From the NCBI GenBank assembly GCA_038848525.1, contig JAWCNN010000004.1:11595-75594 (forward strand): 64,000 nt of DNA, written 5' to 3'. This document shows positions 20,353 to 63,567 of this stretch, in pieces. A model generated the notes under the pieces. That model ran no database searches, had not been told where the DNA came from, and worked only from the letters and a program-made list of their open reading frames with translations. The DNA is from Candidatus Bathyarchaeia archaeon. Its GTDB lineage: Archaea > Thermoproteota > Bathyarchaeia > Bathyarchaeales > Bathycorpusculaceae. The stretch's first letter is position 1. The number at the start of each line of letters is the position of its first letter. Position numbers and translations under genes: made by a program.

Positions 20353-20353
20353 T

Positions 20354-21328: not shown

Positions 21329-21347
21329 TTGCCGTTTTCCTCCTTTT

Positions 21348-32994: not shown

Positions 32995-33096
32995 CGGGCC
33001 CGACGGGAATTGAACCCGTGACCCCCGGGTTTCTCTGCGCTTTTGTGTTTTGCGGTTTAAAAGCCCGGTGCTCTATCCTTACTGAGCTACGGGCCC
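32995..33096 (-). tRNA. tRNA-Lys(UUU) with a 27-nt intron after position 37
   Basis: Hand-folded cloverleaf. Acceptor GGGCCCG/CGGGCCC, D arm GCTC..GAGC, anticodon stem CCGGG/CCCGG with loop CTTTTAA interrupted by 27 nt, T arm ACGGG-TTCAATT-CCCGT, discriminator G. Confidence 0.85.
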
Positions 33097-36364: not shown

Positions 36365-36937
36365 ATGCGGTGTTCAAATTTGATTTCATGGAAAACCTCC
36401 CTCAAAAGATTAAACAAAGAATATGAAATGGCAATGAAAAAGAAACATGCACTAGACAATTTACTCGAAACAGGCAGAATTTCACAGTACACCTACGAAA
36501 TCTTCAACAAAGAATTTGCTGGTGCGGTTGCAGAACTAGATAGGCAACGAAAGGATTTGCTTGACAAAATGAATTCTAAAATGAGGGGACTTGAAGAACA
36601 CATCAAAACCCTAGAAGTTTTACTCGCAAACTTTGAAATTCAACACGTGGCTGGCGAAATAGACGAAGAATCCTACCAACGTGAAGCCAACCTCATAACA
36701 ACAGGACTTGGAGCTGCAAGGCGAGAGTTAGACAATGTAAAAGAGGCTTACAACCAACTTTTAAATGACATAAACACCCCCATAGAAGCCTTAACCATAC
36801 AAGAAACAGAAGCTGAAACCAAAGAAAACGAAAGTTTGGAGGTCAGCGGAACCGAGCCTTCCGAAAACCCGCAAGAACCAGAAAACGCACAAATTCCAGA
36901 AACAGCGACGGAACTAACACAAGAAAAACAAGACTAA
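36365..36937 (+). CDS. hypothetical coiled-coil protein with an acidic C-terminal tail
   Basis: 190-aa ORF. The start could instead be M22 (MAMKKKH, 36428). Confidence 0.45.
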   Translation: MRCSNLISWKTSLKRLNKEYEMAMKKKHALDNLLETGRISQYTYEIFNKEFAGAVAELDRQRKDLLDKMNSKMRGLEEHIKTLEVLLANFEIQHVAGEIDEESYQREANLITTGLGAARRELDNVKEAYNQLLNDINTPIEALTIQETEAETKENESLEVSGTEPSENPQEPENAQIPETATELTQEKQD

Positions 36938-36955: not shown

Positions 36956-39418
36956 TTAATATTCACTTACAAAACTTATTTCTGGATAATCCTTAACCGT
37001 TCTGCCCACGCCCTTTTCCGCTAAAATTTCAAGCTTCAAAATTTTGCATGTCCCAGCAATATCATTCTTGCTTTGGCTGAGGGCTTCCGCATTCTCGCTG
37101 TTTCCAGCGTAAATTTTCACTTTCGCTATTTCCATGTTCAACGGCTTTCGCCTCTCAGCTTTTTCCCGTCTAATCTCTGTTATAACGGCTATTACCAAAT
37201 CGCCCTTCCTTTCAGCCTCCTCATCTATCCTTTTCAGGTCTGGTTCAGGCCAAGGCGTCAGTTGTAGGCTTTTTACGCCCACATCTCCAGCATACATTAT
37301 CTGGTAAATTTCCTCTGTTATGTGTGGTGTTATCGGCGCCAACAACTGAATTACACGGTATAAAACATTGTAAAGCGTGCATTGAACAGCTTTTCTCTGC
37401 GTTTCTCCGTACCTTTCAGGCTTGTAAAGTCTATCCTTAACCGCTTCAATGTATTGGTCGCAAAATACATGCCACGTGAAATTGCGCACTTCCTCAACGG
37501 CAATGTTGAATTGGCACTTTTCCAAGGCTTCTGTAACCTTCTGCGTCAACTTTTCAATTTTGCTAAGAACCCACCTGTCCAAAAGCTGCAGTTCAAATTT
37601 TTCGCCGATTTTATAGTCTTCAAGCTGAACGCTTACGAATCTTGCAGCATTCCAAAGTTTAGTTAGGAAGCGTCTGCCATATTCCACATCTGACCAGCGG
37701 AATGGAATGTCTGAGCCTGTTGCTCCTCCAGCTGCAGCCCACTGCCTCGTGGCGTCTGTTCCATACTTGTCCAGCACTTCTGGCGCTGCAACATAATTTT
37801 TGAGGGATTTGCTCATTTTTCTGCCGTCTGAACCTAAAACCATGCCGTTTATTAAACAGCTTTTGTAAGGCGTCTCTTCGAAGAGGGCTAGGTGCCTAAC
37901 CATTAAGTAATAAGCCCAAGTTCTTATAATGTCTACGCCTGAAGGATGCAAATCAGCTGGAAAAAGCCTTCGCCAGTCTTCACGGTCTGGCCAGCCAGCA
38001 TGCACAGCGCATGTGATGGATGAGTCCATCCAAGTGTCGAAAACGTCTTGTTCTGGAATGAAATCTTTGCCTCCGCATTTTGGACACTTGCCAATTCTTG
38101 GATTTTCAAGTTTGGGGTCTATGGGAACCCAGCTTTCCTCCGCCAAAATTGTTTCGCCACAGTTTTTGCAGTACCATACTGGTATGGGCGTTGCGAAAAT
38201 GCGTTGGCGACTTATAACCCAATCCCAATCCAACGAACGCGCCCAATCTATTAAGCGGGTTTTCATGTAATCTGGATACCAAATCACTTTGTTTGCTGTC
38301 TCCTCCACCTTATCCGTTAAAATGCGAGTCTTCATAAACCACTGTTTACGTTCAAGAATCTCGACGGGTGTTCCACATCTTTGGCATACGCCTATTTCTT
38401 GCCTAAGCCTTTCAGTTTTTTCAAGCAAACCTTCAGCCTTAAGGTCTTGAACTATGGCTTCCTTCGCCTCTTTTATGGTTAATCCAGCATATTTTCCGCC
38501 GTTCTCGTTTAGCCTTCCATTCTCCGTTAAAATTGTAATTACTGGAAGCTTATGCCTAATCACGGTTTTCACGTCTTCTTTGTCGCCGTAAGTGCATATC
38601 ATAACAACGCCCGTACCGAAAGACGGGTCAACACCTTCGTCCGCTATTATCTCAACCGTGCGGTTAACAACTGGAACAACAATTTTTCTGCCAATATACG
38701 TCTTAAACCTGTCGTCCATGGGGTTAACAGCAACCGCCACACAAGCGGATATGAACTCTGGACGTGTTGTGGCTATTAACAAGTGTTCTTTACAACTTTC
38801 CAACGGAAACTTGATGTAGTGTAAGGCGCCCTCCCGCTCTTCATATTCAACCTCAGCATCCGCAATAGCTGTTTCACAACGAGAACACCAATTCACTGGA
38901 TGTGTACCCTGATAAACAAAGCCTTTCTTATACAAAATTATGAAGCTAAGCTGAGTGCGCCTCCAATAGTCCGAGTCCATCGTGCGGTATTCCGTTGTCC
39001 AATCAACACTGCAACCCAAACGTTTCACGCCTTCCTTCATCATTGCAATATACTTTTCAACAAGCGCCTTACACAACTCACGAAACTTGTCTGGAGGAAA
39101 ATCCCTCTTACGTATGTTATGTTCACGTTCCACTTGCACTTCAACGCTTAAGCCGTGGCAGTCCCAACCCTGCGGAAAATAGACATTATAGCCTCTCATA
39201 CGCTTATAACGAGCGACAATATCAAAGTAAGTCCAGTTTAAAACGTTTCCCATGTGAAACTCGCCAGAAGGATAAGGCGGAGGCGTATCAATGCTGAAAG
39301 TTGGACGTTGCCTATCCTCCCAATCAAAACGGTAAATGCCCATATCTTCCCAAAGCTTCTGCCACTTCCGCTCAACAGCAACAGCGTCAAACTCTTTAGG
39401 CAAAGCCTTCATAACCAA
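36956..39418 (-). CDS. valS: valine--tRNA ligase
   Basis: 820 aa class-I aaRS. It has an HIGH-like motif (PSGEFHMGNV), KMSKS, and YKRMRGYNVYFPQGWDCHGL, which is typical of archaeal ValRS. Confidence 0.9.
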   Translation of the reverse strand: MVMKALPKEFDAVAVERKWQKLWEDMGIYRFDWEDRQRPTFSIDTPPPYPSGEFHMGNVLNWTYFDIVARYKRMRGYNVYFPQGWDCHGLSVEVQVEREHNIRKRDFPPDKFRELCKALVEKYIAMMKEGVKRLGCSVDWTTEYRTMDSDYWRRTQLSFIILYKKGFVYQGTHPVNWCSRCETAIADAEVEYEEREGALHYIKFPLESCKEHLLIATTRPEFISACVAVAVNPMDDRFKTYIGRKIVVPVVNRTVEIIADEGVDPSFGTGVVMICTYGDKEDVKTVIRHKLPVITILTENGRLNENGGKYAGLTIKEAKEAIVQDLKAEGLLEKTERLRQEIGVCQRCGTPVEILERKQWFMKTRILTDKVEETANKVIWYPDYMKTRLIDWARSLDWDWVISRQRIFATPIPVWYCKNCGETILAEESWVPIDPKLENPRIGKCPKCGGKDFIPEQDVFDTWMDSSITCAVHAGWPDREDWRRLFPADLHPSGVDIIRTWAYYLMVRHLALFEETPYKSCLINGMVLGSDGRKMSKSLKNYVAAPEVLDKYGTDATRQWAAAGGATGSDIPFRWSDVEYGRRFLTKLWNAARFVSVQLEDYKIGEKFELQLLDRWVLSKIEKLTQKVTEALEKCQFNIAVEEVRNFTWHVFCDQYIEAVKDRLYKPERYGETQRKAVQCTLYNVLYRVIQLLAPITPHITEEIYQIMYAGDVGVKSLQLTPWPEPDLKRIDEEAERKGDLVIAVITEIRREKAERRKPLNMEIAKVKIYAGNSENAEALSQSKNDIAGTCKILKLEILAEKGVGRTVKDYPEISFVSEY

Positions 39419-39523: not shown

Positions 39524-42500
39524 TTACCATGCTTTTCCATAGTTTTTCTTTATTTCCAGTATGTCTTGTAGGTCAACTACTCCGTTGCCCATCACTGGCG
39601 TAGTTGGGGATATGTCGCATGTGAAGTCCCAGTTTGAATGGCCAGGATAGCTACCATAGGCTTTTTTGGCGGTTAACATGTCTTTTAGTTCGACTTTGTG
39701 GTTGTTGTCTATGTCTGCGTAGGCGCCTGGCGCCGATGAGCCTAAAGCCAACAATAGGAAGTGTAGGTTAGCGGTTTGGCTACTTCCACCATAGGGGCTG
39801 CACGGCAAGAACGGATGATTTTGATGCGGCCAACGAACCCAGTATGTGTCCAAGTATATGTACCAGTCCGGGTGTCCTGCTGTTGGGATCATGGGCATTT
39901 CGCTTCCGATGATTTCTTGGATTTTGTTGGCTATTTCTTGTCTCGTTTTGCCTGGTGGTGGAGTGTCGAGTTGGGCTAGTAACTGCACAAGCGTTGAGTT
40001 TCTGTAGTCACCGTAGTGACTCCAGCATCCAGCTGTTCCCATGAACATTTGGCTGTAACGTTCGTACATGTCGCCGTTTATGCCCCAGTGCATACAGTAA
40101 TGGCTAAAATCAAAGTCCAAGGCATTCATCATGTTTACGTAAGTGGGCTGGTCAGGAAATTCGGCTACAAGCGTTATGCCAAGCAAATTGGTTACGTTGT
40201 CAGCTATAATTTGGGTTATTCCGTTGATATCCGTCCATCCGTAAACATCTATAATTGTCCACGGACCAAGCGCCACGTTCACGCCTGGATACTCGGGCAG
40301 TTCATCCGCTTCTTCAAATCCGTTTTCATACCAGTATTGAGCTGGATGTGTTACTTTGCCTACAGTGAGGTCTACGTTGTCCGCTAAGTACTCTTCAAGC
40401 CAATCCATGTTTGGACCGCTCTTTGTATACCAAGTGCCGTTTACTTTAATGCAGTAATTATTTAAGGTTAGAAGCCCCAGCGCGAGGTTGTAGGAAATGC
40501 GATATTTGTCTTCAATAGTCGTGTTAAGATATTGTCGGGCAACCGTATCATCTGCTGGAATGTACAATGGACTAGCGGGTTTCAAGTACTCGCTTGAAGC
40601 CTGATTAAAAAGTGTAAAGTTAAACACGTAGGCAATAGCCTTGTGAAGCCAAGGTTCATTCAATGGATATTTACGGTGGTTTGGAACTATTATTTTGGTT
40701 GCCTTGTCTATGAAATATGGCGGGTTATTAAGGTAAGTGCGCAAATGCCAAACTGGAATATAGTTGCCGTCCCAGTCGATTTCTCCACTTGCGAAGCCAG
40801 GATATATATCCTCGTTCTTTTCATAATTGTAATATCCAAGATATTCAATTGCGGATTGTTTGCCTATGACGTGTTTACCCCACCATAACGGATTCTTCTT
40901 CATAATCGTGTATTTGGGCCATTCAGCGGTCTGATGAACCCATGGTAGAAACATTCCAGAGGCTACTCTCCAGCAACCATTCAACTCCGGCGGTAAATAA
41001 TCTATTAAATGCGGTGCATTAGGATGTTGTTCTTCTAGGGGTAGTGTCCAATCGTTTTTAAAGTTTGGTATCCAGCCGCCTGCCCAATCATCCGCCCATC
41101 TTTCAATTGCTTTCCAAAGGTCTGCTGGCACTATAAGGTAAGAACGAGTCAAACTTCTCCAAACAACTGAACTCCACATACATTCGGTTTTTATTCGCAC
41201 ATAAAAGACCCAGTCGCTTTCAATCACAAAGTTGTCTATTGAACCTACTCTCTCCTTAAAATCGCCCATGTGCCAGTACTTTCCACCCGGCGATTCGTCG
41301 AATGCTCCGTAAAGGTAAAAGCTATATTTAACATCCTCAGCTGTTATGGGTCTATAATACTGAAAACCACCTGTGCCAGCCTGCCAAGCATCCCAATCTG
41401 TAATTTTAACCCAACAAGCGTCACGGCGAAGCACCACTTTTATACATGTGCTGTTAACCCACTCGATACTTTCGCCAAGCCAATTAATAAGTTGACCACT
41501 TACAACATCAGTTCCAAACATCGGTTCATACATTATATAAGTGTCCCAGCTTTGACCCCAATCCATAATGGCTGGGCAATAACCTACTGTTGGATCAGGC
41601 CAATAACCGCAGCCCCAAAGGGTGTTCTCTCTTGACTGAGGCGGCGGCGCTGGCGAATATGTAAAGGTTGCTTGTAAAGTGTGATTTGTGTTCATTGTTA
41701 TATTTATTGGATTTTCTGAACTGTGGAGTACACCGTCGATTTCCCAATGGTTAAATATATAATTGGCGTAAGGAACAGCTGTGACGGAAACAATTGTTTC
41801 GGATGGGTACAAGTATGTTCCAGGCTGTGGATCAGTTGTTCCACCTGCAGAAGTGGAAATTTTCAAAGAATAAAGGATTGGCGCATATTTAAATACGGCA
41901 AGTAATGTGCTATTTGCAATCACGGGTATTTGTATCGGGTTAAGCGCTCCTTTGTTAACACCGTCCAGTTCCCAATGGTCAAGTGCATAATTAATGTAGG
42001 GTACGGCAGTAACATTCACAATGGTTCCGTAAGTACAAGTGTATGTTCCAGGCGGTGGATCAGTTGTTCCCTCAGTTGCTGCACCGATAGTTAATGTGCA
42101 TTGTTTTAAGCTGAACACTGCATGTAACATATGATAATCATTAAAGGTCACACTTATTGGATTGGCATTAACACTCTCACCATCAAAAACCCAGTGATCA
42201 AAGTAACGTCCAACACCGGGTATGGCGGTGACATCTACCACTGCTCCAACAGGGTATGTGTAAATTCCAGGCGCGGGATTAGTTGCTCCATCAATCATTG
42301 ATGCGATTGTCAGCGTATAAGCGGGTATAAATACTGCGTGTAACGTGTGGTTAACACTCATAGAGATAGTTATTGGATTAACAGTAATGTTCTCACCATC
42401 AAAAACCCAGTGACTAAACACGTAATTTGTGTCTGGTAGGGCTGTAACGCTTACCATGGTTCCCGCAGGATAAGAATATACTCCCGTGGATGGGCTTGTC

Positions 42501-45298
42501 GTTCCGCCTTGTGTTGTGGTGATTGCCAACTCGTATGAAATAGTCGGTGGGCTAATTATAACTGTATCATCAATTAAGACGTTGTCAGCCAGGTTGGCTT
42601 CGCCTGGTGCTTGAGTAACTACAGCGCTAATCACATATTCTCCTGAAATGAATGTTGCTGTGTTCCAGTTAAAAGTCAGCGTTGTCATGGCTGAAGATGT
42701 CAAGTTTGAAAAAGTTTTGCTTCCTATTATTGTCGAATTAGCATATACGGTAACTCCGAAGGCTTCGCGGAGTGTTCCCTTATTTAGGACTGTAACGTTA
42801 ACCTTTATTGTATTCCCTTGAATGACATTAGACGCTGAGGTAACAACGTTAACCACAGCTAGGTCATGTCTTGGAGTTACGTGAATGAATTTGTTTCCGT
42901 AGAATATGCAGCTGATAACGTATGAGTATGGATCACCCGTAAAGTTTTCTGTCTGTTCTTGTGGGTGATAGGCAAACCCTTCCACAAGCCCCTTGCCATA
43001 TGGAAAGTAAAAAGCCAAAGTTCTGTTGGCTCTGTCATACTCTGAAGTTTCCATTACCACCCTTACTACAGTTTTATTTAAAACTTCATCAACAAGTACT
43101 CCGCCATGCATTAGATAGATTTTTGTGATATATGGAAAAGTGGCTGGATATTGACTTGGAAATTCAGGTGAAAATTTATATAATGGCGGATTATGGACAC
43201 GTACATTGCCAACCCAATCCAAATTACCCGTAACAAAATGTACATAACCCGGAAATACCCGAGACAAGTCCATAAGTGCAACATCAGTGAATATAACTTC
43301 GCCTCCACCAGCAACGAAGAGTGTTAAATTGCCTATCACATTAGTAGGAGTTGCACCGAACCATCCCGGACAGTCAATAACAACCAAATCGAAATCGTGA
43401 AATATTGTTGCATTATTGCTAGCGACGCTGCGGGTTACAAGCGTGTATGGTATTTTCATTTGGTTCAAAGTGTCTTCGGTGTGTCCCCATTCTCCATAAA
43501 CAACTAGTACTTTTGTAGGTTTATCGACGATGGACAGTTGATCTGAATAAGCACTGAAAGGCTCTGTTAACTTATCAACAGTAACGTTTGGAAAACGCAG
43601 CTTTATATTTTCAACAATGTATCCATGCACTGGCGGTACAAGAATAACTCCGCCAGAGTAAATGTTTCCTCCGGGGTATTTTATGGTTTTTAATGCTATG
43701 CTTGGTGGTTTTATAATTCGGTATATTGTGGCTCCACTATTTAAGATTGACCATACAAAACCATAAATTGAAACATTTTGCGTTGTCAAAATGTTTTGTT
43801 TTTCATCCATTGGTATGACGTAAGTGCCGCTTGGGAATGAGTATATGGTAGGCTTTGTTGTTGGGAGATAATTTCCCGTTCGCATGGCATCATGCCTAAA
43901 CATTGGCCATTCAACAGCGTAGGGTGTTACTTTAGAACTTTTATCTTCAAGTGCATAGAGAGTTGCTGTCCAATCATAAAAGATTATTTCAAGTCTGCCG
44001 TCACCGTCAATGTCTGCGACGCTGGGCGAAACGGTAATGGAAGCGGTCTCATATAAGTCAATAAGCGAACCATTTAAAGCATCCAGCAAATACAAAGCAC
44101 CAGAACCAACTGAGCTGTTATATAAACTGCCAGAGCCGATGTAAATACCAACGTTTACACCTCGATTTGCAATAGCAAGCGACGAATAAATTGGTTTACC
44201 AGTATCATAAGCCCATTGAAGATTTCCATTTGCATCCAAAGCGTAAATTCGACCGTCCAATGACCCAACATAAATTGTAGAAACATAAACAACTGGAGAT
44301 GAATACACAGGTGCACTTGTTCGGAACATCCATTGAAGAGAACCTGTAGCACCATCTAAACAGTAAAGGTATCCATCTAAGGATCCGATAATAACCTCAA
44401 AGGCAGAATCACCATCAAGATTAGCCAGAGCAGCAGACGAGTAAACGGCGCTTCCGATTTGATAACTCCATTTAAGATCACCTGTTCTACCATTTAAAAC
44501 ATAAACTTTGCCATCTTCAGATCCGATCACCACTTCAATTAGTTCATCATTGTCAATGTCGCCTAAAACTGGTGAAGCTAGCACTGGACCGTCTGTTTGG
44601 AACTTCCATAAAACATCCCAGTCTATCCCTTCCGTTCCACCATATATCCACGGATCTGTAACGGTGATACCCTCATTCACATAATCGAAATTTTCTCCAT
44701 CAAAAGCCCAAACATTTCCATAACTGTCACCTACTACTATTTCAAGTCCGCTTATAGACGGGTCTATATCAGCCGCTGCTGGCGATGAATGCCATAAAAA
44801 GTAGGCTCCAGCCATAGGCGGTGATGGAAATGTCCATACAAAGTTGCCATATCGATCAATAGCTTCAACGTTGATTCCGCTTGTACCGCCAACAATTTCG
44901 AGGTAACCGTCTTTATTAATGTCGGCTAACGCCGGAGAACTTTTTGATGCGTCCGCTTCCGTGTCTTTAGCCCATATGCAACTGCCAGAAGCGTTGAGAA
45001 TACGCCAAATTCCATAGGCTGAACGCCCAAGTTCAGGATACCAGTTTATGCACTCGTCACTTCCAACAATAATTTCAAGTCCGGCTACATCACCGCGTAT
45101 ATCTCCAATAGCCGGAGAAGAACCAAAATATCCCCACTCACAGAAACTTTGTAGTTTATAAGTCCATTCGGGGGCCAAGATGCTGGAAGGGTTGGGGTTT
45201 ACAATGTATGTTGAAGCGAATGTGGAAAATAATAAAATTGTAAGAACTATAATGGGTGATAGTTTTTTCATAGTAGTCCTTTCTCCTCTAAATAGCAC
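39524..45298 (-). CDS. giant secreted multidomain protein, 1924 aa
   Basis: Approximate domain map from motifs, by residue:
- Signal-like N-terminus, 1-31.
- FG-GAP/PQQ-like beta-propeller, 60-450 (GDIDNDELIEVVIGSEDGKVYVLNG and similar).
- Unassigned alpha/beta region, 480-805.
- CARDB, 808-915.
- Four B-repeats, 921-1212.
- SBP_bac_5-like domain, 1225-1835 (ITAEDVKYSF; VPNHRKYPLNEPWLHKAIAYVFN).
- Dockerin-like module, 1858-1924. Confidence 0.8.
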   Translation of the reverse strand: MLFRGERTTMKKLSPIIVLTILLFSTFASTYIVNPNPSSILAPEWTYKLQSFCEWGYFGSSPAIGDIRGDVAGLEIIVGSDECINWYPELGRSAYGIWRILNASGSCIWAKDTEADASKSSPALADINKDGYLEIVGGTSGINVEAIDRYGNFVWTFPSPPMAGAYFLWHSSPAAADIDPSISGLEIVVGDSYGNVWAFDGENFDYVNEGITVTDPWIYGGTEGIDWDVLWKFQTDGPVLASPVLGDIDNDELIEVVIGSEDGKVYVLNGRTGDLKWSYQIGSAVYSSAALANLDGDSAFEVIIGSLDGYLYCLDGATGSLQWMFRTSAPVYSSPVVYVSTIYVGSLDGRIYALDANGNLQWAYDTGKPIYSSLAIANRGVNVGIYIGSGSLYNSSVGSGALYLLDALNGSLIDLYETASITVSPSVADIDGDGRLEIIFYDWTATLYALEDKSSKVTPYAVEWPMFRHDAMRTGNYLPTTKPTIYSFPSGTYVIPMDEKQNILTTQNVSIYGFVWSILNSGATIYRIIKPPSIALKTIKYPGGNIYSGGVILVPPVHGYIVENIKLRFPNVTVDKLTEPFSAYSDQLSIVDKPTKVLVVYGEWGHTEDTLNQMKIPYTLVTRSVASNNATIFHDFDLVVIDCPGWFGATPTNVIGNLTLFVAGGGEVIFTDVALMDLSRVFPGYVHFVTGNLDWVGNVRVHNPPLYKFSPEFPSQYPATFPYITKIYLMHGGVLVDEVLNKTVVRVVMETSEYDRANRTLAFYFPYGKGLVEGFAYHPQEQTENFTGDPYSYVISCIFYGNKFIHVTPRHDLAVVNVVTSASNVIQGNTIKVNVTVLNKGTLREAFGVTVYANSTIIGSKTFSNLTSSAMTTLTFNWNTATFISGEYVISAVVTQAPGEANLADNVLIDDTVIISPPTISYELAITTTQGGTTSPSTGVYSYPAGTMVSVTALPDTNYVFSHWVFDGENITVNPITISMSVNHTLHAVFIPAYTLTIASMIDGATNPAPGIYTYPVGAVVDVTAIPGVGRYFDHWVFDGESVNANPISVTFNDYHMLHAVFSLKQCTLTIGAATEGTTDPPPGTYTCTYGTIVNVTAVPYINYALDHWELDGVNKGALNPIQIPVIANSTLLAVFKYAPILYSLKISTSAGGTTDPQPGTYLYPSETIVSVTAVPYANYIFNHWEIDGVLHSSENPINITMNTNHTLQATFTYSPAPPPQSRENTLWGCGYWPDPTVGYCPAIMDWGQSWDTYIMYEPMFGTDVVSGQLINWLGESIEWVNSTCIKVVLRRDACWVKITDWDAWQAGTGGFQYYRPITAEDVKYSFYLYGAFDESPGGKYWHMGDFKERVGSIDNFVIESDWVFYVRIKTECMWSSVVWRSLTRSYLIVPADLWKAIERWADDWAGGWIPNFKNDWTLPLEEQHPNAPHLIDYLPPELNGCWRVASGMFLPWVHQTAEWPKYTIMKKNPLWWGKHVIGKQSAIEYLGYYNYEKNEDIYPGFASGEIDWDGNYIPVWHLRTYLNNPPYFIDKATKIIVPNHRKYPLNEPWLHKAIAYVFNFTLFNQASSEYLKPASPLYIPADDTVARQYLNTTIEDKYRISYNLALGLLTLNNYCIKVNGTWYTKSGPNMDWLEEYLADNVDLTVGKVTHPAQYWYENGFEEADELPEYPGVNVALGPWTIIDVYGWTDINGITQIIADNVTNLLGITLVAEFPDQPTYVNMMNALDFDFSHYCMHWGINGDMYERYSQMFMGTAGCWSHYGDYRNSTLVQLLAQLDTPPPGKTRQEIANKIQEIIGSEMPMIPTAGHPDWYIYLDTYWVRWPHQNHPFLPCSPYGGSSQTANLHFLLLALGSSAPGAYADIDNNHKVELKDMLTAKKAYGSYPGHSNWDFTCDISPTTPVMGNGVVDLQDILEIKKNYGKAW
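39698..39845 (-). repeat. 148-bp tract identical to 45640..45787 in the neighbouring paralog
   Basis: Base-by-base comparison of the two stretches shows no mismatch. Flanking coding sequence is clearly diverged. Confidence 0.95.
41663..42538 (-). repeat. four tandem ~70-aa protein repeats (InlB B-repeat / Listeria-Bacteroides repeat type) inside the 1924-aa gene
   Basis: Each unit reads like GGTTSPSTGVYSYPAGTMVSVTALPDTNYVFSHWVFDGENITVNPITISMSVNHTLHAVF. The four units are diverged at the DNA level. Confidence 0.6.
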
Positions 45299-45444
45299 CT
45301 AATAATTTAGTTGAGAAAATATATAAAGATTATGAAACAAATTTATAGTAAAATAATCCGTTAATTATTAGTAGATAATGAGGCTTCAATTGAGTTTCCT
45401 CTCCATTCAAAGAAAATGGGGAAGTGGAGGTTTGTGTTTTGGGT

Positions 45445-48249
45445 TTACCATGTTTTTCCATAGTTTTTCTTTACTTCTAGTATGTCTTGTAGGTCTACTT
45501 TTCCGTCGCCCCTCACTAGTTTTGGTGGGTTACCAACTATGTATGTTGGGGCTATGTCGCATGTGAAGTCCCATCTTTCGTGGCATGGGTAGCTGCCGTA
45601 GGCTTTTTTGGTTTCTAGTATGTCTATTAGTTCGACTACGTGGTTGTTGTCTATGTCTGCGTAGGCGCCTGGCGCCGATGAGCCTAAAGCCAACAATAGG
45701 AAGTGTAGGTTAGCGGTTTGGCTACTTCCACCATAGGGGCTGCACGGCAAGAACGGATGATTTTGATGCGGCCAACGAACCCAGTATAAGTCACTGTAGA
45801 TGTAGGGGTGTGGAGTGTTAGCAATTGGGATTAGGGGTTCGTCGCTTCCTACAATCCATTGGACTTTGTTGGCGATTTCCTGCATGTTTCCAAGTGAAAC
45901 TTTCAGTTCAACTTGTATATAATCTGTGGCCAGTAATGGTGGGGGCTCCCATGATGGGTATGCCATTGCCATAACATATATTCTGCCGTGCTGGTCTATG
46001 TAGTCGTTGCTTGGCAGTGAAACGCTGATGAAAATGTCTTCAGTGGATGGTAGAATTGTGGCTATTATGTTCCATTGGAGGCTGGTGTGGTTCCAAACCA
46101 TGAGTTCGCCAGCTGATCCTTGATCAAAACGATCTATGAAGCCCTCCCATGTTACATTTATTGATACTACCATGTCTTTTGTTATGCCGAGTGGTAGAGT
46201 AAAATTGAAGATGTGTTGCGCATAATCGTTCCAAGTGATGGGTACCGTGGTTTCACGGACGTCATCGGAACGTTTGACGTTATCGGCGTTAATTTCACCT
46301 GCGAATGTGGAGTATGGCGGTTCATTAACGACTGAGTCGCCGTTATCATATTTGCCCCATGCATACTCAGCCTTGTAAAGAACAATGCGCGAGATAAAAC
46401 TATCACAGAGGTCCAGCAGAGTTTCAAGCGTTGGGTTTCTGTAGTCGCCTAGATGCGCATACACATAAGTGAAGTTGCCAGTAAATAGTTGCTTATACAC
46501 TTCACATACAGTTGAACCTAAACCATGCGGCATAGAATAGTAGTGGCTAAAGTCATAGCTCAGCTCATCCATTACCTGTTCATATTCCGAATAAGAAATA
46601 AGCATAGCTGTAAGCGTAATGTCAAGCAATTTTGTCCAGTTAGCAATGAGTAGCGTTACATAATTTCCGTCTGTCCATCCTTCTATGTCTATGATTGTCC
46701 ATGGGCCGAGTTGCACGTTTACGCCTGGAATATTTGGCAGTTGATCTGCTTCGCTAAGTCCATGCTTTAGCCAGTACGAGGCTGAATGTGTGATTTGACC
46801 TATGGTAAGGTTTACATCATCTGTCAAATAGTTTTCAAGCCATTGTTGACATGGGCCTTCCTTTGTGTACCATGCGCCGTTAGGCCAGTTGTACGGGCGG
46901 TTTGTTGTTGAGTTCCAGCCTTGAATTGTGCCGTTGTATATATAATAGCATGTTGCATTTAAAATTTCAATTGCCTCTTGAACATCTTGCACGTATGGTA
47001 TTTGCACATATGTGCCGTTGAAATATTCATTTACGAAGTAGGCATTTATTGTTTCGTTGCGAACATTCTTAGGCAGGTATAGTGGGCTTGGCGGTATAAG
47101 GTAACCTGCGCCGAAACTGGAGAAATTGAGTATGTGACACATAGCATGATGTAGCCACTGCTCACCTAAAGGCCACCTCCGATGATTTGGAACTACGAAC
47201 TCATCTGCACCTTCATCCACGTAGTATGGTGGATCATAAAGGTAAGTGTGCAAGAAGCAGTATTGCTGCATAAGCTCGCCTATGTTTGGAACGGCAATGC
47301 CACACCAGTCAATTCCACCGTTTATTAAGTCTTGAATAAAGGCTTCGTAGGAGTCATAGTGCTTATACACACAGTAGTTCGGCGCTGGACGTCTGCCGAA
47401 GAGGCGGATGCCCCACCATAACGGGTTCTCCTTCATCAGCACATAGTGAGGATACTCCGTGGTTTGGCGCATGTATGGAAGATACATTCCGGAGGCCACT
47501 CTCCACTCTGGCGGTGTGCCTGGCAATGTATTGTTTGTCCAGTCGTTTGGGAAGTCTGGAACCCATGGATACTGCTGCTCAATTTGTTGCCAAACGTCGA
47601 AAGGCATTATGAGATATGACTTTGTTAAGGAACTATATACCACTTGGGCCCATGTTTCATTTACTCTCACATGAATTTCTTTATCGCTTATGATCATAAA
47701 ACTATCCCATGATGCATTTACTAACCCTTCTGGAAGCCCAGGTATCCCTTGGTACACATCCGTAAGATTGAGGCTGTATTTGACATCCGTAGTATTTATT
47801 GGTCTGTAATATTCTACGCCGCCTGTGCAGGCTTGCCAAGCATCCCAATCTGTGATTTTAACCCAGTAAGGCGCATATTTGCCGCCGCCAATATCCTTCT
47901 TACGAAGCATTATCTTTATCGTGGTGCTGTCAAGCCATTCTATGTTTTCGCCAAGCCATTTGATAAGGCGGTTGCTTGCACGGTCAACGCCAAACAGCGG
48001 CTCGTACATGATGTATGTGTCCCAACATTGACTCCAATCCATAATGCATGGAACACTCGTAGCCCACGCTGGGTCTGGCCAATAACCGCTAACAGAAATT
48101 GTTTTATCTCTAGGAACTGGCAAGTCCCATTCTGGTGGTTGAGCAGACATTGAAGAAACATTTATCATTCCAATGTTCAATAGCAATACAATTACGAACA
48201 GCAAAGCCGCTGTTACACACTTATGTCTCTTATTGGATGGTTTATCCAA
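45445..48249 (-). CDS. secreted SBP_bac_5-like protein with an inserted domain and a C-terminal dockerin-like module (934 aa)
   Basis: TTG start and a signal-like N-terminus. It is paralogous to residues ~1225-1924 of the upstream-coordinate giant protein (YWPDP...MDWSQCWDTYIMYEPLFG...). It ends in DIDNNHVVELIDILETKKAYG ... GDGKVDLQDILEVKKNYG. Confidence 0.8.
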   Translation of the reverse strand: MDKPSNKRHKCVTAALLFVIVLLLNIGMINVSSMSAQPPEWDLPVPRDKTISVSGYWPDPAWATSVPCIMDWSQCWDTYIMYEPLFGVDRASNRLIKWLGENIEWLDSTTIKIMLRKKDIGGGKYAPYWVKITDWDAWQACTGGVEYYRPINTTDVKYSLNLTDVYQGIPGLPEGLVNASWDSFMIISDKEIHVRVNETWAQVVYSSLTKSYLIMPFDVWQQIEQQYPWVPDFPNDWTNNTLPGTPPEWRVASGMYLPYMRQTTEYPHYVLMKENPLWWGIRLFGRRPAPNYCVYKHYDSYEAFIQDLINGGIDWCGIAVPNIGELMQQYCFLHTYLYDPPYYVDEGADEFVVPNHRRWPLGEQWLHHAMCHILNFSSFGAGYLIPPSPLYLPKNVRNETINAYFVNEYFNGTYVQIPYVQDVQEAIEILNATCYYIYNGTIQGWNSTTNRPYNWPNGAWYTKEGPCQQWLENYLTDDVNLTIGQITHSASYWLKHGLSEADQLPNIPGVNVQLGPWTIIDIEGWTDGNYVTLLIANWTKLLDITLTAMLISYSEYEQVMDELSYDFSHYYSMPHGLGSTVCEVYKQLFTGNFTYVYAHLGDYRNPTLETLLDLCDSFISRIVLYKAEYAWGKYDNGDSVVNEPPYSTFAGEINADNVKRSDDVRETTVPITWNDYAQHIFNFTLPLGITKDMVVSINVTWEGFIDRFDQGSAGELMVWNHTSLQWNIIATILPSTEDIFISVSLPSNDYIDQHGRIYVMAMAYPSWEPPPLLATDYIQVELKVSLGNMQEIANKVQWIVGSDEPLIPIANTPHPYIYSDLYWVRWPHQNHPFLPCSPYGGSSQTANLHFLLLALGSSAPGAYADIDNNHVVELIDILETKKAYGSYPCHERWDFTCDIAPTYIVGNPPKLVRGDGKVDLQDILEVKKNYGKTW

Positions 48250-48379
48250 TTTTTTATTCCTCTAAAATTTTTATATACAATCTATTATAGGCGTATATAA
48301 ACGGTTTAAAAGATTTATGGTAAAAAGTGCAAGTCCCAAAAACATTTATACCGCCAAATAACACCTATTTTATTCAAGG

Positions 48380-48472
48380 TTTAGGGGAGCTGAGCTGTGA
48401 CTTGGCTGAGAGGATGGCTGAACGCCGTCGACCCTTAGAACCTGACCCGGGTAATACCGGCGGAGGGAAAAC
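48380..48472 (+). promoter_or_regulatory. TPP (THI-box) riboswitch upstream of thiC
   Basis: Matches the conserved cores GGGGAGC...GGCTGAGA...ACCCTTAGAACCTGACCCGGGTAATACCGGCGGAGGGAA. Compare E. coli thiM: GGGGUGC..CUGAGA..ACCC..ACCUGAUCUGGAUAAUGCCAGCG.AGGGAA. Confidence 0.85.
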
Positions 48473-48552
48473 AAATGAATAAGAACATGTTTAAAAATTC
48501 TTTAAAAGCGAGTTTTTAGCTTCTTTCGCAGTTTTGGAGGTTATATGGAAAT

Positions 48553-49851
48553 ATGACAACGCAAATGTGTGCTGCTAAAAGTGGGAAAATAACCGAAGAA
48601 ATGCGTATAATTGCCAAAGACGAGGGAGAATCACCTCGAAGGGTTTGTCGGCGTTTGGCAGAAGGCACGCTTATTATAACTCGTAATGTTCAACGTGAAA
48701 ATGTGCATCCAGTTGGGATTGGCAAGGGCTTGCGTGTTAAGGTTAATGCGAATGTTGGCACAAGCCCTGACTTGTGCGATTTAAATTTGGAGTTGGAGAA
48801 AGCGAAGGTTGCCGTGAAATTTGGCGCTGACACGGTCATGGATTTGAGTACGGCTGGCAATTTAGACGAAATAAGAAGGGCAATATTGAAGGCTGTTAAT
48901 GTGCCAGTTGGCACGGTGCCGATTTATCAAACAGCCGTGGAAATTGCCAATAAAAAGGGCGCAATCGTGCATATGACTGAAGATGATATCTTCAACGTTA
49001 TAGAACGCCAAGCCAAAGACGGCGTTGACTTCATGACTGTACATTGTGGAGTTACAATGCAAATCGTTAAAAGCTTAGCCAAACATCCACGCTTAATGGG
49101 AGTCGTAAGCCGAGGAGGAACATTTTTAGCCTCGTGGATTCTCCACCACAACAAGGAAAATCCGTTATATGCGAATTATGATTATCTTTTAGAGTTAGCG
49201 GCAAAATACGATTTCGTTTTAAGCATCGGAGACGGTTTGAGGCCGGGCTGCATATTTGACTCTACGGATTGGGCGCAAATTCAAGAGTTACTCACAATTG
49301 GAGAGCTTGTGGAAAGGGCCAGAGCCAAAAATGTGCAGGTCATGGTTGAAGGACCTGGGCATTTACCCTTAAATGATGTGGCAGCTAATGTGCAGCTTGA
49401 AAAGTCAATTTGTAAAGGCGCGCCGTTTTATGTGCTTGGTCCAGTTGTAACGGAAATAGCGCCGGGATACGACCATATTGCTGGGGCTATTGGCGGAGCT
49501 TTGGCTGGGCTTGCAGGCGCAGATTTCCTATGCTATTTGACGCCTTCGGAGCATCTGAGCTTGCCAAGTTTGGAAGACGTTAAAGAGGGCGTTATAGCCA
49601 CGAAAATAGCTGCGCATGCCGTTGACATTGCAAAGCTTGGACGCAAAGTTGCAATGCAGGATTTGGCTATGGCAAAAGCCAGGGCAAACCTCGACTGGAA
49701 AAATCAGTTTGAAAACGCCTTAGACCCTGAAAAAGCCATGAAAATTCATGGTAGAGTAAAACCTAAAAGTGGAACTTGTTCGATGTGTTCTGAGTATTGC
49801 GCCATAAAAATTTTGAGGGAGACGTTGAAGGCTGAGGGGCAATGCCTATGA
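48553..49851 (+). CDS. thiC: phosphomethylpyrimidine synthase
   Basis: 432 aa radical-SAM ThiC with a C-terminal CSMCSEYC cluster motif and conserved VMVEGPGH. Confidence 0.95.
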
Positions 49852-56357: not shown

Positions 56358-56972
56358 GTGATAAAAATGAATTCGAAACAAACAGCATTTATTGCAGCCA
56401 TGAGCGCTTTAGGACTCACATTATCGGCAACCTCAACCAACATGGCGCCATTATTGGAGGCGGCAGGTGGACAAGCAGGAGCAGCGCTTGACCTTTCTCA
56501 CGTAGCAACTTTTATAGCTGCCATTTTCGGCGGACCCTACATAGGTGCTATTGTTGGATTTTTAGGCGGTATATATGCTGGGTATCATTTTGGATATGTT
56601 GTTGGCACGCTTGGATTGCTTTCACTCATAGGAGTGCCTTTTGGAAAAGCTTTAACTGGATTAACGGCTGGTTTCCTTTATAAAAGATTGAAAGTGAACA
56701 ACAGCCGTAGACCTTCCACCTTAACCGTTCCTATAACGTTGATATCCTACGTTCCAGAATGCATTTACACGATTATTTACTTCTTATACATGGTTCAGTT
56801 TTTCTATGGATTTGGAATGGGTTTTATGGTTTCAATAGTTATTCCAAAGGCGTGGATAGAAATAACCGTAATGAGTTTCCTAATGGGTGCGTTAGCTGGA
56901 AATAATGGCTTCAAGGAATTCATCAACAGATTTTATGTTCCACATTTGAAAATTGCCAAATCAGAAACCTAA
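56358..56972 (+). CDS. polytopic membrane protein, ECF S-component-like by eye
   Basis: 204 aa with about six TM helices. The LDLSHVATFIAAIFGGPYIGAIVG pattern resembles vitamin-transporter S components. Confidence 0.4.
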   Translation: MIKMNSKQTAFIAAMSALGLTLSATSTNMAPLLEAAGGQAGAALDLSHVATFIAAIFGGPYIGAIVGFLGGIYAGYHFGYVVGTLGLLSLIGVPFGKALTGLTAGFLYKRLKVNNSRRPSTLTVPITLISYVPECIYTIIYFLYMVQFFYGFGMGFMVSIVIPKAWIEITVMSFLMGALAGNNGFKEFINRFYVPHLKIAKSET

Positions 56973-57938
56973 AGATTTCTTTAACATTTCTGCGTTAATT
57001 TCTCCAGTTTTAAAGATTTTACCAGTTTTCACGTTGTTTATTACCAAAACTGCTGGTGCGAAGAGATTTGGGTCTATCTTGTAAAAGTTGTGGTTGGCTT
57101 CTTCGAAAATTTCTATGAAGGTTTTCCCATAATCTTTAGATGCCTTAGATGGTGCTTTCGTCACTATTTCCACAAGTTTTTCTTCATCGGCGCACTCAAT
57201 CGCATAATAGGCTGTTCCGCCATATAGGATTGCGTCGTTTGTCCTTGCCATTGCATTTGCAAATTTTGGGTGAACAGGCGGAATTGGAGTGCATCCCCAA
57301 GCATACAAAATTGTGTTTGGGTTTAATCCCAACTTGCTTAACTTGTGGATGCCAGTTTCAACTATTCTTCCAGCGATTTGTGTTGCACCAGTTAGGCTTG
57401 TGGTTGGCGTCAAAATTACCGCAAAATTTTCAGGAGAAACTCCGCAATCTTTTGCTAGGCGTTCCACAAGTTTTTCAGGCGGATGCTTATCGGTTTCTAA
57501 AACTACAATGCCCTTATCAAAACTGTCTTTATACCCGATTTCCGCATAAATTTTCTTAGGCTTTAGGGCTAAGGCTCTTGCTGGTCCAGAGCCAATAGCA
57601 GAATAATCGCCTTCTTTTATTTGCCATCCTGCAAACTGTGAGCCTAATGTGGCTATTGCTGGGTGGTCTGTGTAAACAAGTATGGAGGGAAGCACTAAAT
57701 CGCCATAACGCCTACTGGTTATTTGGGCTTTTCCACATCCGCCCATGCAAATTTCCGTTATGACCTTTCCAGCTTGAAATCCGCCTTTGGCTTTTACTCC
57801 AGCATCCACAATTGCTGCGCCTAAACTTGTCCTTTCAACCTTCACGTTGTAAAAATCTGGGTTTGTACATAGTTTCTCTAGGAGTTTCCATGCCAAACGG
57901 TTAACGCTTAAAGTTTTCAAAGCGTCTTCTCCCGACAA
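56961..57938 (-). CDS. mch: methenyltetrahydromethanopterin cyclohydrolase
   Basis: 325 aa. The N-terminal LSVNRLAWKLLEKL...AAIVDAGVKAKGGFQAGKVITEICMGG pattern is characteristic of Mch. Confidence 0.88.
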   Translation of the reverse strand: MSGEDALKTLSVNRLAWKLLEKLCTNPDFYNVKVERTSLGAAIVDAGVKAKGGFQAGKVITEICMGGCGKAQITSRRYGDLVLPSILVYTDHPAIATLGSQFAGWQIKEGDYSAIGSGPARALALKPKKIYAEIGYKDSFDKGIVVLETDKHPPEKLVERLAKDCGVSPENFAVILTPTTSLTGATQIAGRIVETGIHKLSKLGLNPNTILYAWGCTPIPPVHPKFANAMARTNDAILYGGTAYYAIECADEEKLVEIVTKAPSKASKDYGKTFIEIFEEANHNFYKIDPNLFAPAVLVINNVKTGKIFKTGEINAEMLKKSLGF

Positions 57939-58007
57939 GGGACTTTTAAGATTTGTTTTTGTAAGTTCTAAATTATAGGTGAAATCAGTTCATAAACCTT
58001 CACAACA

Positions 58008-58902
58008 TCAAATTCTATTTTTAACAAGACTGTAATGTGGGTGATAACAAGTTACTTCAAATCCTAATTTCTGAGCTATTTTAAACGAACTGATATTTTC
58101 TTTGTTGCAACTCCATACTGGTTCATAACCGTTTTCTAGGCAATAATCAATTAAAGCGGCAGCCGGATAAATTCCATAGCCCTGTCTGCGAAATTTTTCG
58201 TTAGTTTCTATTCCAAGTTCAAGATTTCTATCCACTATCCACGATGAAAAACAAGTACTGATAACCGTACCTTCATTCAGTAGACAGAATCCAATGCCTT
58301 CTTTTAAAAAGTGGTCAGGTGAATCCCAGAAATTTTTAGGTACGACTTTCCCTGAAATTTTTTGAAATAGATTTTTATCTATTTTGACAATTTTGAATCC
58401 TTCAGGGATTTTCATCTTTCCCTTTATATTATTGCAATAATTATGCTTGTTAAATTTGAAATTTACTCGAGTCCACTTAACAACAAAGCGTTCTTTTACA
58501 CTGTTAATATAAGATTCAAATTCATGGTTGCCAACTTCATGAGATTTTAATTCCGAATAGCTAATCAGCAAACCATTAAGTAATATTTCTAATTGTTGGT
58601 TCCATTTTTCAGGGTACACCATTAACCATTCAGGCTTCGAAACACCTATGTTTTTGTTTAACATAATTTTTGTTTAACATAATATTGCGTAGCTGGATGT
58701 TAAATTCGGTGTTTGAGCAACTACCACATAAAAAGTGCCATTCCGTATTTGTGACAAATTAAACTAACAGTTGGGTTTGATGCATCATCTACATAATTGA
58801 ACCTTGCACTTTGTTTTCAACAACCACTTGGGCGTAATAAACATTGAATGGAACTTCGTTCATCAAATGGCGCACTTTAAAATATTCAAGAGGTTTTATC
58901 AT
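58008..58902 (-). pseudogene. GNAT-family acetyltransferase gene disrupted by three frame changes (the 218-aa 3' ORF at 58008..58664 remains open)
   Basis: The upstream 240 nt translate in shifting frames. The pieces are MIKPLEYFKVRHLMNEVPFNVYYAQVVVENKVQGSI, then YVDDASNPTVSLICHKYGMALF, then CGSCSNTEFNIQLRNIMLNKN. Removing a 16-bp tandem duplication joins the last piece in frame to the 218-aa ORF. Confidence 0.6.
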
Positions 58903-58936
58903 GTAATGTTCCCTATGTATGCTTGCTGGCAATGTT

Positions 58937-59770
58937 TTAAATCTTATTAAAAAGTTTTTCGTAATGGTTTAGATGGGTGTTCCGCTCTTTTGAAACATAA
59001 AGTTTGCCTTCGCCATGTTCCGCAAGGTCTCCGACGAAAAGATAAAAAGGTCCTACAACAGTTTCGTCTCCTTCAATTTTAACCCTTTCTTTGACGCCTT
59101 CTATTGTGAAAGTGGGCAGAGCAGACTCTAAAAACCCTTCGATGACTATTTTGCCACCCCTCATGCATGCTCCAGCTCTTCCATCAGAATCCTTTTGAAC
59201 GTAAATTGTTCCGTTGCGCATTCTGAAACCCAAAAATTGACCAGCACACCCGTAAACTTTTATTATGCCGTTTCTCATGTAAGCGCCAGCCTCGTTTCCA
59301 ACATCTCCATAAACGATTATTTTGCCGCCACGCATGCCCTCGCTGCTTCCACGGTATGGAGCGCCCAAATAAGCGCCAGCGTTTCCGTGAATTTTTATAA
59401 TGCCTCCCTTCATCATCGCCCCAGCCCCTCCGTCCACATTCCCATACACATTTATTTCACCGCCTTTTATTTCCACACCCAAGTGCATTCCAACATCCCC
59501 ATAAACTGTTATTTTTCCATTTTTCATGCCAGCGCCGATTCTCCGAACCTTTCCCACGTTACCCCTAATGGTTATGGCTTCATCATCCGACGAGTTTTCA
59601 GTTTTAGCCTCTTCAACCTTAAAGAGTTCTCTGAGCTTTTTCTGTTTGTTTCCTTCCCAAATTTTCAGTTCCCCTATTTCCTCAATTGTTTTGCCGTGGA
59701 AAACATCTGGGTTTATACATTCGGCAATCAGTGGAAACCTGAACTCTCTAGTGGGATGCAAAATTATCAT
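58937..59770 (-). CDS. fwdC: formylmethanofuran dehydrogenase subunit C
   Basis: 277 aa of repeated G-x-x-G-x-x-M-x-x-G beta-helix turns (GltB C-terminal-like). Confidence 0.88.
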   Translation of the reverse strand: MIILHPTREFRFPLIAECINPDVFHGKTIEEIGELKIWEGNKQKKLRELFKVEEAKTENSSDDEAITIRGNVGKVRRIGAGMKNGKITVYGDVGMHLGVEIKGGEINVYGNVDGGAGAMMKGGIIKIHGNAGAYLGAPYRGSSEGMRGGKIIVYGDVGNEAGAYMRNGIIKVYGCAGQFLGFRMRNGTIYVQKDSDGRAGACMRGGKIVIEGFLESALPTFTIEGVKERVKIEGDETVVGPFYLFVGDLAEHGEGKLYVSKERNTHLNHYEKLFNKI

Positions 59771-62919: not shown

Positions 62920-63029
62920 CTAAACCCAGCAGCCTCTAAACCCTTTTTAACTCTCAAATGAAAAGTTAACCATTAAACCTTTTGGTATCCCGCAAACTCT
63001 AGAAAACATGAACGGACTAGTTTACATGT

Positions 63030-63428: not shown

Positions 63429-63567
63429 TTTTAACACGATTTGAAAATGAATTGTCAGTTTGTAATTAACTTTTATCCTCGCCGACAAAGGTTAAAATAG
63501 TCAGCTATAAGAAAGGCTTTTAAGTTAGATTTGAGGGTTTAAAAGGGTGCGTTAACTTTGAATTAAG

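Follow-up and report, generated by a model that had tools for sequence, protein, structure and literature searches.

Two solute-binding proteins of a Bathyarchaeia archaeon carry C-terminal dockerins and are probably tethered near an Opp-type importer by a membrane-anchored cohesin

The binding protein of an ATP-binding cassette (ABC) importer can be kept at the membrane by free diffusion in the periplasm, by a lipid anchor, by a transmembrane (TM) helix, by fusion to the permease or, in Sulfolobus, by a pilin-like assembly. Archaeal sugar binders of the Opp type, such as CbtA of Pyrococcus furiosus and the cellobiose and maltose binders of Sulfolobus, carry a C-terminal TM anchor. Here, we analyzed a stretch of 64,000 nucleotides from a metagenome-assembled genome (MAG) of a Candidatus Bathyarchaeia archaeon (assembly GCA_038848525.1, contig JAWCNN010000004.1, positions 11,595 to 75,594; hereafter the window), in which two neighbouring genes encode large secreted proteins, proteins 1 and 2, each combining an Opp-type solute-binding domain with a C-terminal dockerin. 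We propose that these are probably accessory binding proteins, encoded apart from any transporter operon, which are tethered through a cohesin-dockerin interaction and feed an Opp-type importer of the same MAG.

The TM-anchored archaeal binders belong to the same family and operon context as the window proteins and end in a linker, a TM helix and a basic tail; in the window proteins a dockerin takes the place of this covalent anchor and would provide a tether that is non-covalent and exchangeable. The best matches to the binding domains are the mannoside binders TM1223/TM1226 and the cellobiose binder TM0031 of Thermotoga maritima (PDB 1vr5, 4pft, 4pfu, 2o7i) and a laminarin binder (4jsd), all sharing the bilobate cluster C fold. 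These proteins are annotated as 'oligopeptide' binders yet bind β-linked sugars. Unlike the window proteins, to which they are ~20% identical, they are free periplasmic proteins of ~540-590 aa that are encoded in transporter operons and have neither a dockerin nor a big N-terminal extension. For the dockerin and cohesin profiles the best PDB matches come from the anchoring part of clostridial cellulosomes, where a type II dockerin binds scaffoldin cohesins of the SdbA/ScaB type (2b59, 3kcp, 4u3s, 2y3n). There, too, a dockerin-bearing protein is attached to a cell-bound cohesin, but the cargo is an enzyme-laden scaffoldin and the anchor an SLH domain, whereas here the cargo would be a transporter binding protein held by a single cohesin with a TM/PEF-like tail and no X-module.

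Archaeal cohesin and dockerin modules have been known since Archaeoglobus fulgidus (cited in PMC9012536), and dockerin-bearing substrate-binding proteins of the NikA/OppA and TroA types have been recorded in ANME (anaerobic methanotrophic) archaea, which also encode cohesins (Chadwick et al. 2022, PMC9012536). ANME belong to Halobacteriota and the window to Thermoproteota/Bathyarchaeia; the ANME case is a domain census, likened to ours by domain combination and not by sequence, and that paper describes no syntenic membrane-anchored cohesin, no exchange of a TM helix for a dockerin and no giant fusion. The combination of a binding protein with a dockerin is therefore not new, and the window pair is an unusual anchoring solution. 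The first-pass annotation, made from the DNA letters and a list of translated open reading frames (ORFs), had known of no characterised system with this architecture; the ANME proteins are a precedent, although none has been characterised experimentally. Our literature search found no study of a dockerin-tethered binding protein apart from the ANME census, and none on this combination in Bathyarchaeia, on a syntenic membrane-anchored cohesin, on TM-to-dockerin exchange within one orthologous family, on gene conversion of a dockerin cassette or on a giant fusion like protein 1. A likeness of another kind is found in Borrelia burgdorferi, in which several OppA paralogues (OppA1-5), some of them unlinked, serve one Opp permease and broaden its substrate range (PMC7822543). 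The likeness lies in unlinked paralogues sharing one permease; those of Borrelia are peptide-binding bacterial lipoproteins, and no cohesin-dockerin pair is involved.

The binding domains of both window proteins have the family-5 (Opp-type) solute-binding fold. When PDB was searched with phmmer, the targets retrieved were the Thermotoga Opp-family binders of mannosides, cellobiose and laminarin (E=3e-21 for protein 1, E=4e-10 for protein 2). An AlphaFold2 (AF2) model of residues 1215-1924 of protein 1 was confident (predicted local distance difference test, pLDDT, 90.4; predicted TM-score, pTM, 0.89), and its best Foldseek matches were again Thermotoga binders (E=1e-34); the target TM-scores were 0.79-0.86 for T. 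maritima TM1223/TM1226 and 0.72 for 2o7i, which binds cellobiose. Neither protein has lost any of the 44 invariant columns of a 27-member family alignment, and the two binding domains are ~43% identical to each other at the protein level. The Pfam family SBP_bac_5 (PF00496) scored protein 1 at 27.8 bits, under its gathering cut-off of 32.4, and gave no match to protein 2, while a PF00496 match is precomputed for 17 of 29 homologues. The fold recognised at first reading is thus upheld by phmmer, AF2 and Foldseek, with the Pfam check itself below threshold or empty.

As to ligands, oligopeptides and glycans had both been suggested. In the Foldseek ranking Thermotoga sugar binders came first, followed by Vibrio chitooligosaccharide binders and then by the peptide-type OppA, DppA and NikA. 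Because the nearest solved relatives bind β-linked oligosaccharides, glycans are the likelier ligands by analogy, and peptides lose ground. We rejected a plain identity as peptide-binding OppA, since the sugar binders are structurally much closer. The binding domain of protein 2 is interrupted by an inserted domain that is missing from protein 1 and from most homologues, looks β-rich by eye and has no Pfam match. A different insertion is present elsewhere in the binding domain of another homologue, P0007.

The C-terminal modules are dockerins at the family level, with an atypical second segment. As a dockerin we counted two tandem calcium-binding loop-helix segments with D/N at loop positions 1, 3, 5, 9 and 12. 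A profile of 15 homologous modules matched dockerins in PDB at E=2e-13 (2y3n_B, 4u3s_B, 2b59_B), and Dockerin_1 (PF00404) matched 13 of the 15 aligned modules at E<=1, with a best E of 6e-11. The window modules are colinear with, and up to 51% identical to, the canonical two-segment dockerins that end homologues, one of which reads DINNDRKVDIIDI...DINGDGKVDILDI at the same C-terminal position. The calcium loop of segment 1 is canonical (D-I-D-N-N-H-K-V-E-L-K-D), and the expected dockerin helices are present in the AF2 model at model residues 657-665 and 696-704 (pLDDT 77-95). An insertion of 7-13 residues between position 1 and G(D/N)G of the second loop is found in the window proteins and in two homologues, P0002 and P0004. 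Taken alone, the window modules scored 16.6 and 14.0 bits with Dockerin_1, under the cut-off of 22.9; it was the family profile that bore out the early assignment.

Hydropathy scanning found a single hydrophobic segment per protein, at the N-terminus (aa 13-35 and aa 8-36). In agreement with the first reading, the scan placed no TM helix at either C-terminus, and no lipobox was recognised by sequence reading at either N-terminus; the coordinates and hydropathy likewise confirmed two same-strand ORFs, closely spaced, with signal-like N-termini (Table 1). A TM helix hidden in the C-terminal 'LHFLLLALG' was considered and rejected on the negative scan. We also rejected a Sulfolobus-type bindosome: the N-termini read as ordinary Sec signals, not as class III pilin-like ones.

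Other genes of the same MAG supply the remaining parts. With a cohesin profile derived from locus L002 and protein P0008, we found a cohesin of 224 aa (P0031; QW270_01355, MEM2971059) composed of a signal peptide, a ~165-aa cohesin, the motif 'IPEF', a TM helix and a basic tail. Its family profile matched nothing but cohesins in PDB (best E=1.2e-12), and the top 38 Foldseek matches of its AF2 model (pLDDT 83) were all cohesins. P0031 is 67% identical to P0030, a small anchored cohesin encoded beside the dockerin-bearing homologue P0004. A search with the permease beside P0004 revealed an OppB-type permease in the MAG (P0050, MEM2971065), 69% identical to the query. The MAG further encodes P0002 (MEM2971061, QW270_01365), a dockerin-bearing paralogue of the window proteins. 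All three genes are recorded on one contig of 160,102 bp and, to judge from the numbering, the P0002 gene is two genes away from that of the cohesin and four away from that of the permease. Exact look-ups of contigs encoding thiC, P0002 and P0023 returned no record, and P0050 led only to a Logan contig of 2.3 kb. This order mirrors that of L002: cohesin, β-helix protein, binding protein, atpF, atpD, permC, permB.

Small archaeal cohesins of ~210-250 aa with a signal peptide, a single cohesin and an anchor tail form a family of their own (P0030-P0047; L002 8033-8797; L011 13028-13729; L030 7901-8632). The tail consists of [IV]PEF, a TM helix and KK/KR in 13 of 17 small cohesins. Membership of these tails in PEF-CTERM was rejected, the scores being sub-threshold, and is kept as a resemblance only; P0031 itself gave no match to the PEF-CTERM models TIGR03024 and TIGR04296.

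To place the window proteins among their relatives, we used a family-alignment scan with one genome per species, which yielded 28 loci (a genome scan with P0002 alone found no relative); 34 loci were annotated with profiles for permeases, ATPases, cohesin, dockerin and binding protein. In ~25 loci the binding-protein gene stands directly beside permB-permC-atpD-atpF, and these operon-linked loci span Thermoproteota, Brockarchaeota, Bathyarchaeia, and Thor-, Hermod- and Promethearchaeota. The proteins have two alternative C-termini at the same position, either a linker with TM helix and basic tail or a dockerin. The TM anchor is found in all Asgard members and most others, while dockerin-type members are from Bathyarchaeia wherever the record names a lineage. 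Dockerins occur within full permease/permease/ATPase/ATPase operons in P0019 (L003), P0009 (L004/L005) and the L011 homologue, and P0004 is convergent with the transporter operon that adjoins it in L002. The first-pass view that these binding modules are detached from any transporter is not supported by this comparison: dockerin-bearing members adjoin complete operons, and a paralogue in the same MAG lies near a permease. L004 also holds GH94 and GH5 genes, which fits uptake of cello-oligosaccharides; its GH5 has no dockerin match.

The two C-termini differ in what surrounds them. Of the 7 dockerin-type loci, 5 have a gene for a TM-tailed cohesin at a distance of a few kb; of the 22 TM-type loci, none does (Fisher p=1.8e-4). 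In a rough neighbour-joining tree of the binding domain, calculated without support values, dockerin-type and TM-type members are intermingled, from which it appears that the anchor has been exchanged more than once.

Not all dockerin-bearing copies are operon-linked: unlinked ones are also present in L012 and L030. Upstream of the dockerin-bearing binding protein in L002 (372-8033) and L030 (176-7816) lies a cohesin cluster whose products include a ~800-aa protein with at least two cohesin-like modules, a PKD protein that has a C-terminal dockerin, and a ~690-aa protein that combines two cohesins with CARDB repeats and a dockerin. This cluster looks like a scaffoldin/adaptor set. No glycoside hydrolase bearing a dockerin was found in any locus examined. 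Two further proteins, P0008 (L001 2671-7518) and P0023 (QW270_02755, from the MAG of the window), contain a binding domain minus its middle third, the first half being joined straight to the C-terminal 'YWxRWP...SPYGG' segment. P0008 fuses it with an S8 protease, a dockerin and a cohesin, and P0023 with a TM-rich N-terminal region. The cassette of binding domain plus dockerin thus seems to be reused as a module. P0008 and P0023 were the only homologues above 1000 aa in the search with protein 2, though the same search missed protein 1, which makes it weak evidence of absence.

The three paralogues of the MAG, namely the two window proteins and P0002, have nearly identical dockerins. Between P0002 and protein 2 a match just as close is seen over the first ~160 residues, and the part in between is far less alike. 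In addition, the two window genes have an identical tract of 148 nt that takes in the last stretch of the binding domain together with the first dockerin loop (Table 1), compared with a longest match of <=14 nt in shuffled sequence. We read this identity as a trace of recent gene conversion between the two genes, which presumably keeps the dockerins alike and hence matched to the same cohesin partner.

Together, these observations are most consistent with the following arrangement, which we consider probable. Both proteins would be exported to the cell surface via a Sec signal peptide. Having no TM or lipid anchor of their own, they would bind through the C-terminal dockerin to the small cohesin QW270_01355, itself held in the membrane by its '[IV]PEF + TM helix + basic tail'. 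The window genes would then be unlinked accessory paralogues of the operon-encoded QW270_01365, and the dockerin that they have in common with it would bring all paralogues to the same anchor. Additional β-linked oligosaccharides could in this way be delivered to the OppBCDF-type importer at QW270_01365-01385 and its ligand range widened. The extension of protein 1, with its propeller, ~320-aa domain, CARDB and B-repeats, may hold a polymer or other surface partners near the binding site. That a dockerin stands in place of a TM anchor points to tethering near the membrane rather than to display on a distal scaffold.

If the proposal is correct, the cohesin-dockerin tether would be an added mode, non-covalent and exchangeable, of keeping binding proteins in place, and several receptors, wherever in the genome their genes lie, could share one anchor and one importer. 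The non-cellulosomal cohesin and dockerin modules of archaea, which have long been puzzling, would also gain a concrete function. Bathyarchaeia are abundant, uncultured archaea of sediments and hot springs whose role as polymer degraders is debated; for them, the proposal points to uptake of β-linked oligosaccharides. The idea is open to direct testing with three small, easily expressed modules, namely the dockerin, the cohesin and the binding domain.

A bolder extension, which we hold only tentatively and think will rather turn out too broad, is a surface 'uptake-some' in which PEF/TM-anchored cohesins, multi-cohesin proteins and adaptors with both cohesin and dockerin arrange interchangeable oligosaccharide binders above the Opp-type importer. 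Giant fusions and dockerin-bearing proteases would be included, polymer capture would be coupled to uptake, and gene conversion would spread the dockerin cassette. Such an assembly would parallel the cellulosome in function, with transport in the place of hydrolysis, and its ABC receptors would be attached non-covalently and swapped as modules.

Several points weigh against tethering to an importer of the same MAG. As noted at first reading, valS and thiC flank the pair and no permease or ATPase gene is adjacent; for Opp genes this extends to the entire 64 kb, where a scan of all ORFs of at least 150 aa with Pfam and locus-derived profiles found no BPD_transp_1, oligo_HPY, Opp permease/ATPase or cohesin. 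The link of the window genes to a transporter runs through another contig of a binned MAG, and gene adjacency on that 160-kb contig was deduced from accession numbering and from synteny with L002. In the second dockerin segment positions 1, 5, 9 and 12 are kept, while the insertion replaces the ligand at position 3. With the PEF-CTERM models TIGR03024 and TIGR04296 the cohesin tails scored 18.1 vs 23 and 13.2 vs 25, both sub-threshold. The N-terminal extension of protein 1, ~1200 residues long, is to our knowledge unprecedented for a transport binding protein and might hinder docking on a permease. Finally, the truncated binding domains of P0008 and P0023 indicate that the module is also used outside transport.

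Some of these points would be expected if, as originally suggested, the binding modules were independent of any transporter and sat on a cellulosome-like cohesin-dockerin scaffold, capturing or presenting glycans or peptides as carbohydrate-binding or adhesion modules do. No transporter genes are linked to the pair in the window, the binding domain of protein 1 is fused to an adhesin-like propeller, CARDB and B-repeats, and truncated domains occur in the non-transport fusions P0008 and P0023; moreover, adaptor-like proteins with at least two cohesins, or with cohesin and dockerin, are encoded beside the binding-protein gene in L002/L030, and unlinked dockerin-bearing copies recur in L012 and L030. 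Nevertheless, we consider scaffold display unlikely. The family is overwhelmingly OppBCDF-linked, its dockerin-bearing members too, and a dockerin that substitutes for a TM anchor implies a near-membrane tether. The same MAG has a transporter and a paralogue with the same dockerin, every invariant family position is kept in both window proteins, and the loci examined hold no dockerin-bearing glycoside hydrolase. The two window genes are unlinked copies and no proof of a transporter-free system. Of the earlier suggestion, display through cohesin and dockerin remains plausible, the MAG having yielded a cohesin when searched, and the transporter-free scaffold is the part that was not supported; given the proteins of relatives with several cohesins or with cohesin and dockerin, a larger cellulosome-like assembly may still exist.

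The proposal of tethering to P0031 also has to be set against readings in which there is no tether at all. Peer and colleagues reportedly described in 2009 many archaeal dockerin-like modules for which no partner is known, and the C-terminal module might be a calcium-binding, EF-hand-like tail of this sort, stabilising the protein or interacting with an S-layer, with the proteins released or retained by other means. The sub-threshold Dockerin_1 scores of the window modules and the disrupted second loop are in line with this. We find it improbable, as the modules are colinear homologues of canonical dockerins, cohesin genes co-occur with dockerin-type and not with TM-type loci, the dockerins of three paralogues have stayed alike through gene conversion, and the same insertion-type dockerin in P0004 adjoins P0030, the close relative of P0031. 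It is more improbable still, to the point that we give it very little weight, that the two genes are decaying, non-functional duplicates of the operon-encoded binding protein: an unlinked location, the mosaic of protein 2 with ends near-identical to P0002 and its unexplained 165-aa insertion could be taken that way, but both reading frames (1915 and 934 codons) run through without a break, no invariant family position has been lost, the AF2 model is confident and each gene has a TATA-like box.

The features of the two genes are listed in Table 1. The GenBank record of protein 1 (MEM2971392.1, 'PQQ-binding-like beta-propeller repeat protein') has 1915 aa, and because of this we take the ATG at 45271 as the probable true start. 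A TATA-like box, TTTATATA, was read upstream of each of the two genes; protein 1, to judge from the box in the spacer, probably has a promoter of its own. In the N-terminal extension of protein 1, the ~320-aa domain recurs in 75 representative clusters (E<1e-10). A check of 25 representatives placed it, as a rule, directly behind the signal peptide, and most of these proteins end in a TM or PEF-like anchor. Neither single-sequence nor family-profile searches gave it a Pfam or PDB match; as a guess, its fold may be GATase1-like or flavodoxin-like. NCBIfam searches with the two window proteins returned sub-threshold BamB/PQQ matches only.

Table 1. Positions of the two genes, their domains and flanking genes in the window
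Feature	Position	Strand	Basis or remark
valS	36956-39418		flanking gene
Protein 1, maximal ORF of 1924 codons	39524..45298	-	ORF reading
Protein 1 dockerin, aa 1857-1924	39527..39730	-	segment 1 DIDNNHKVELKD; segment 2 D-I-[insertion]-GNGVVDLQD
148-nt identical tract, copy 1	39698..39845	-	end of binding domain and first dockerin loop
Protein 1 Opp-family (cluster C, SBP_bac_5-like) binding domain, aa ~1222-1850	39749..41635	-	phmmer, AF2, Foldseek
Four InlB B-repeat-like (Flg_new_2) modules, aa ~915-1215, then PAPPPQ linker	41654..42556	-	Pfam 99.7 bits, 4 stretches
CARDB domain, aa 812-894	42617..42865	-	Pfam 33.8 bits vs 22.7
Conserved ~320-aa domain, aa ~487-810	42869..43840	-	motifs IIxPPD, DCPGW, GGExIFTD, FHPxEQ, YGNKF
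β-propeller (PQQ-like / FG-GAP repeats), aa ~40-470	43889..45181	-	Pfam PQQ_2 67 bits, FG-GAP_3 43 bits, both above threshold
Protein 1 Sec-type signal peptide (MKKLSPIIVLTILLFSTFAS...)	45185..45271	-	hydropathy scan and sequence reading
Spacer between the genes, 146 nt, with TTTATATA box upstream of protein 1	45299..45444	-	sequence reading
Protein 2, 934 aa / 934 codons	45445..48249	-	identical to GenBank MEM2971393.1 (QW270_03095, hypothetical protein)
Protein 2 dockerin, aa 860-934, 13-residue insertion in second loop	45448..45672	-	alignment with homologues
148-nt identical tract, copy 2	45640..45787	-	end of binding domain and first dockerin loop
Protein 2 solute-binding domain, C-terminal part, aa ~786-855	45685..45894	-	pairwise alignment, phmmer
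Protein 2 inserted ~165-aa domain, aa ~618-785	45895..46398	-	gap in pairwise alignments
Protein 2 solute-binding domain, first part, aa ~44-617	46399..48120	-	pairwise alignment, phmmer
Protein 2 signal peptide	48139..48249	-	basic stretch, hydrophobic stretch, ...SMSA/QPPEW; hydropathy and reading
thiC	48553-49851		flanking gene

On the valS side the pair is followed by a CdvA-like cell-division gene next to valS (36365-36937, +), and on the other side by thiC, thiD/ThiN and Thi4. Just upstream of thiC there is a thiamine pyrophosphate (TPP) riboswitch at 48373-48485 (+; Rfam RF00059, 71.3 bits vs 54.3). It lies within the 303 nt that separate protein 2 from thiC and leaves only ~120 nt for the promoter of protein 2. 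A single ABC element was found in the window, a generic ABC_tran fragment at 63569-64000 (+), which lies 15 kb away from both genes and runs off the window end. What is present is the N-terminal part (79 bits), with a weak likeness to OppD/F (E=3e-8).

Elsewhere in the window, Rfam detected a tRNA at 32995-33096 (-) with 60.2 bits, spanning 102 nt vs the 71 positions of the model. ARAGORN detected none in the whole window; the Rfam match is probably an archaeal tRNA with an intron. At 56961-63488 (-), a gene for Mch (methenyl-tetrahydromethanopterin cyclohydrolase) is located near a formylmethanofuran dehydrogenase-like run (GXGXG, Amidohydro_3, molybdopterin, Molydop_binding), and these genes represent the methyl branch of the archaeal Wood-Ljungdahl pathway, as expected for Bathyarchaeia. 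A complete set for a 2-oxoacid dehydrogenase complex (E1 alpha, E1 beta and a lipoyl-bearing E2) lies at 19246-22316 (-), and a gene for a caspase-domain (Peptidase_C14) protein is located further upstream, at 9833-11152 (-).

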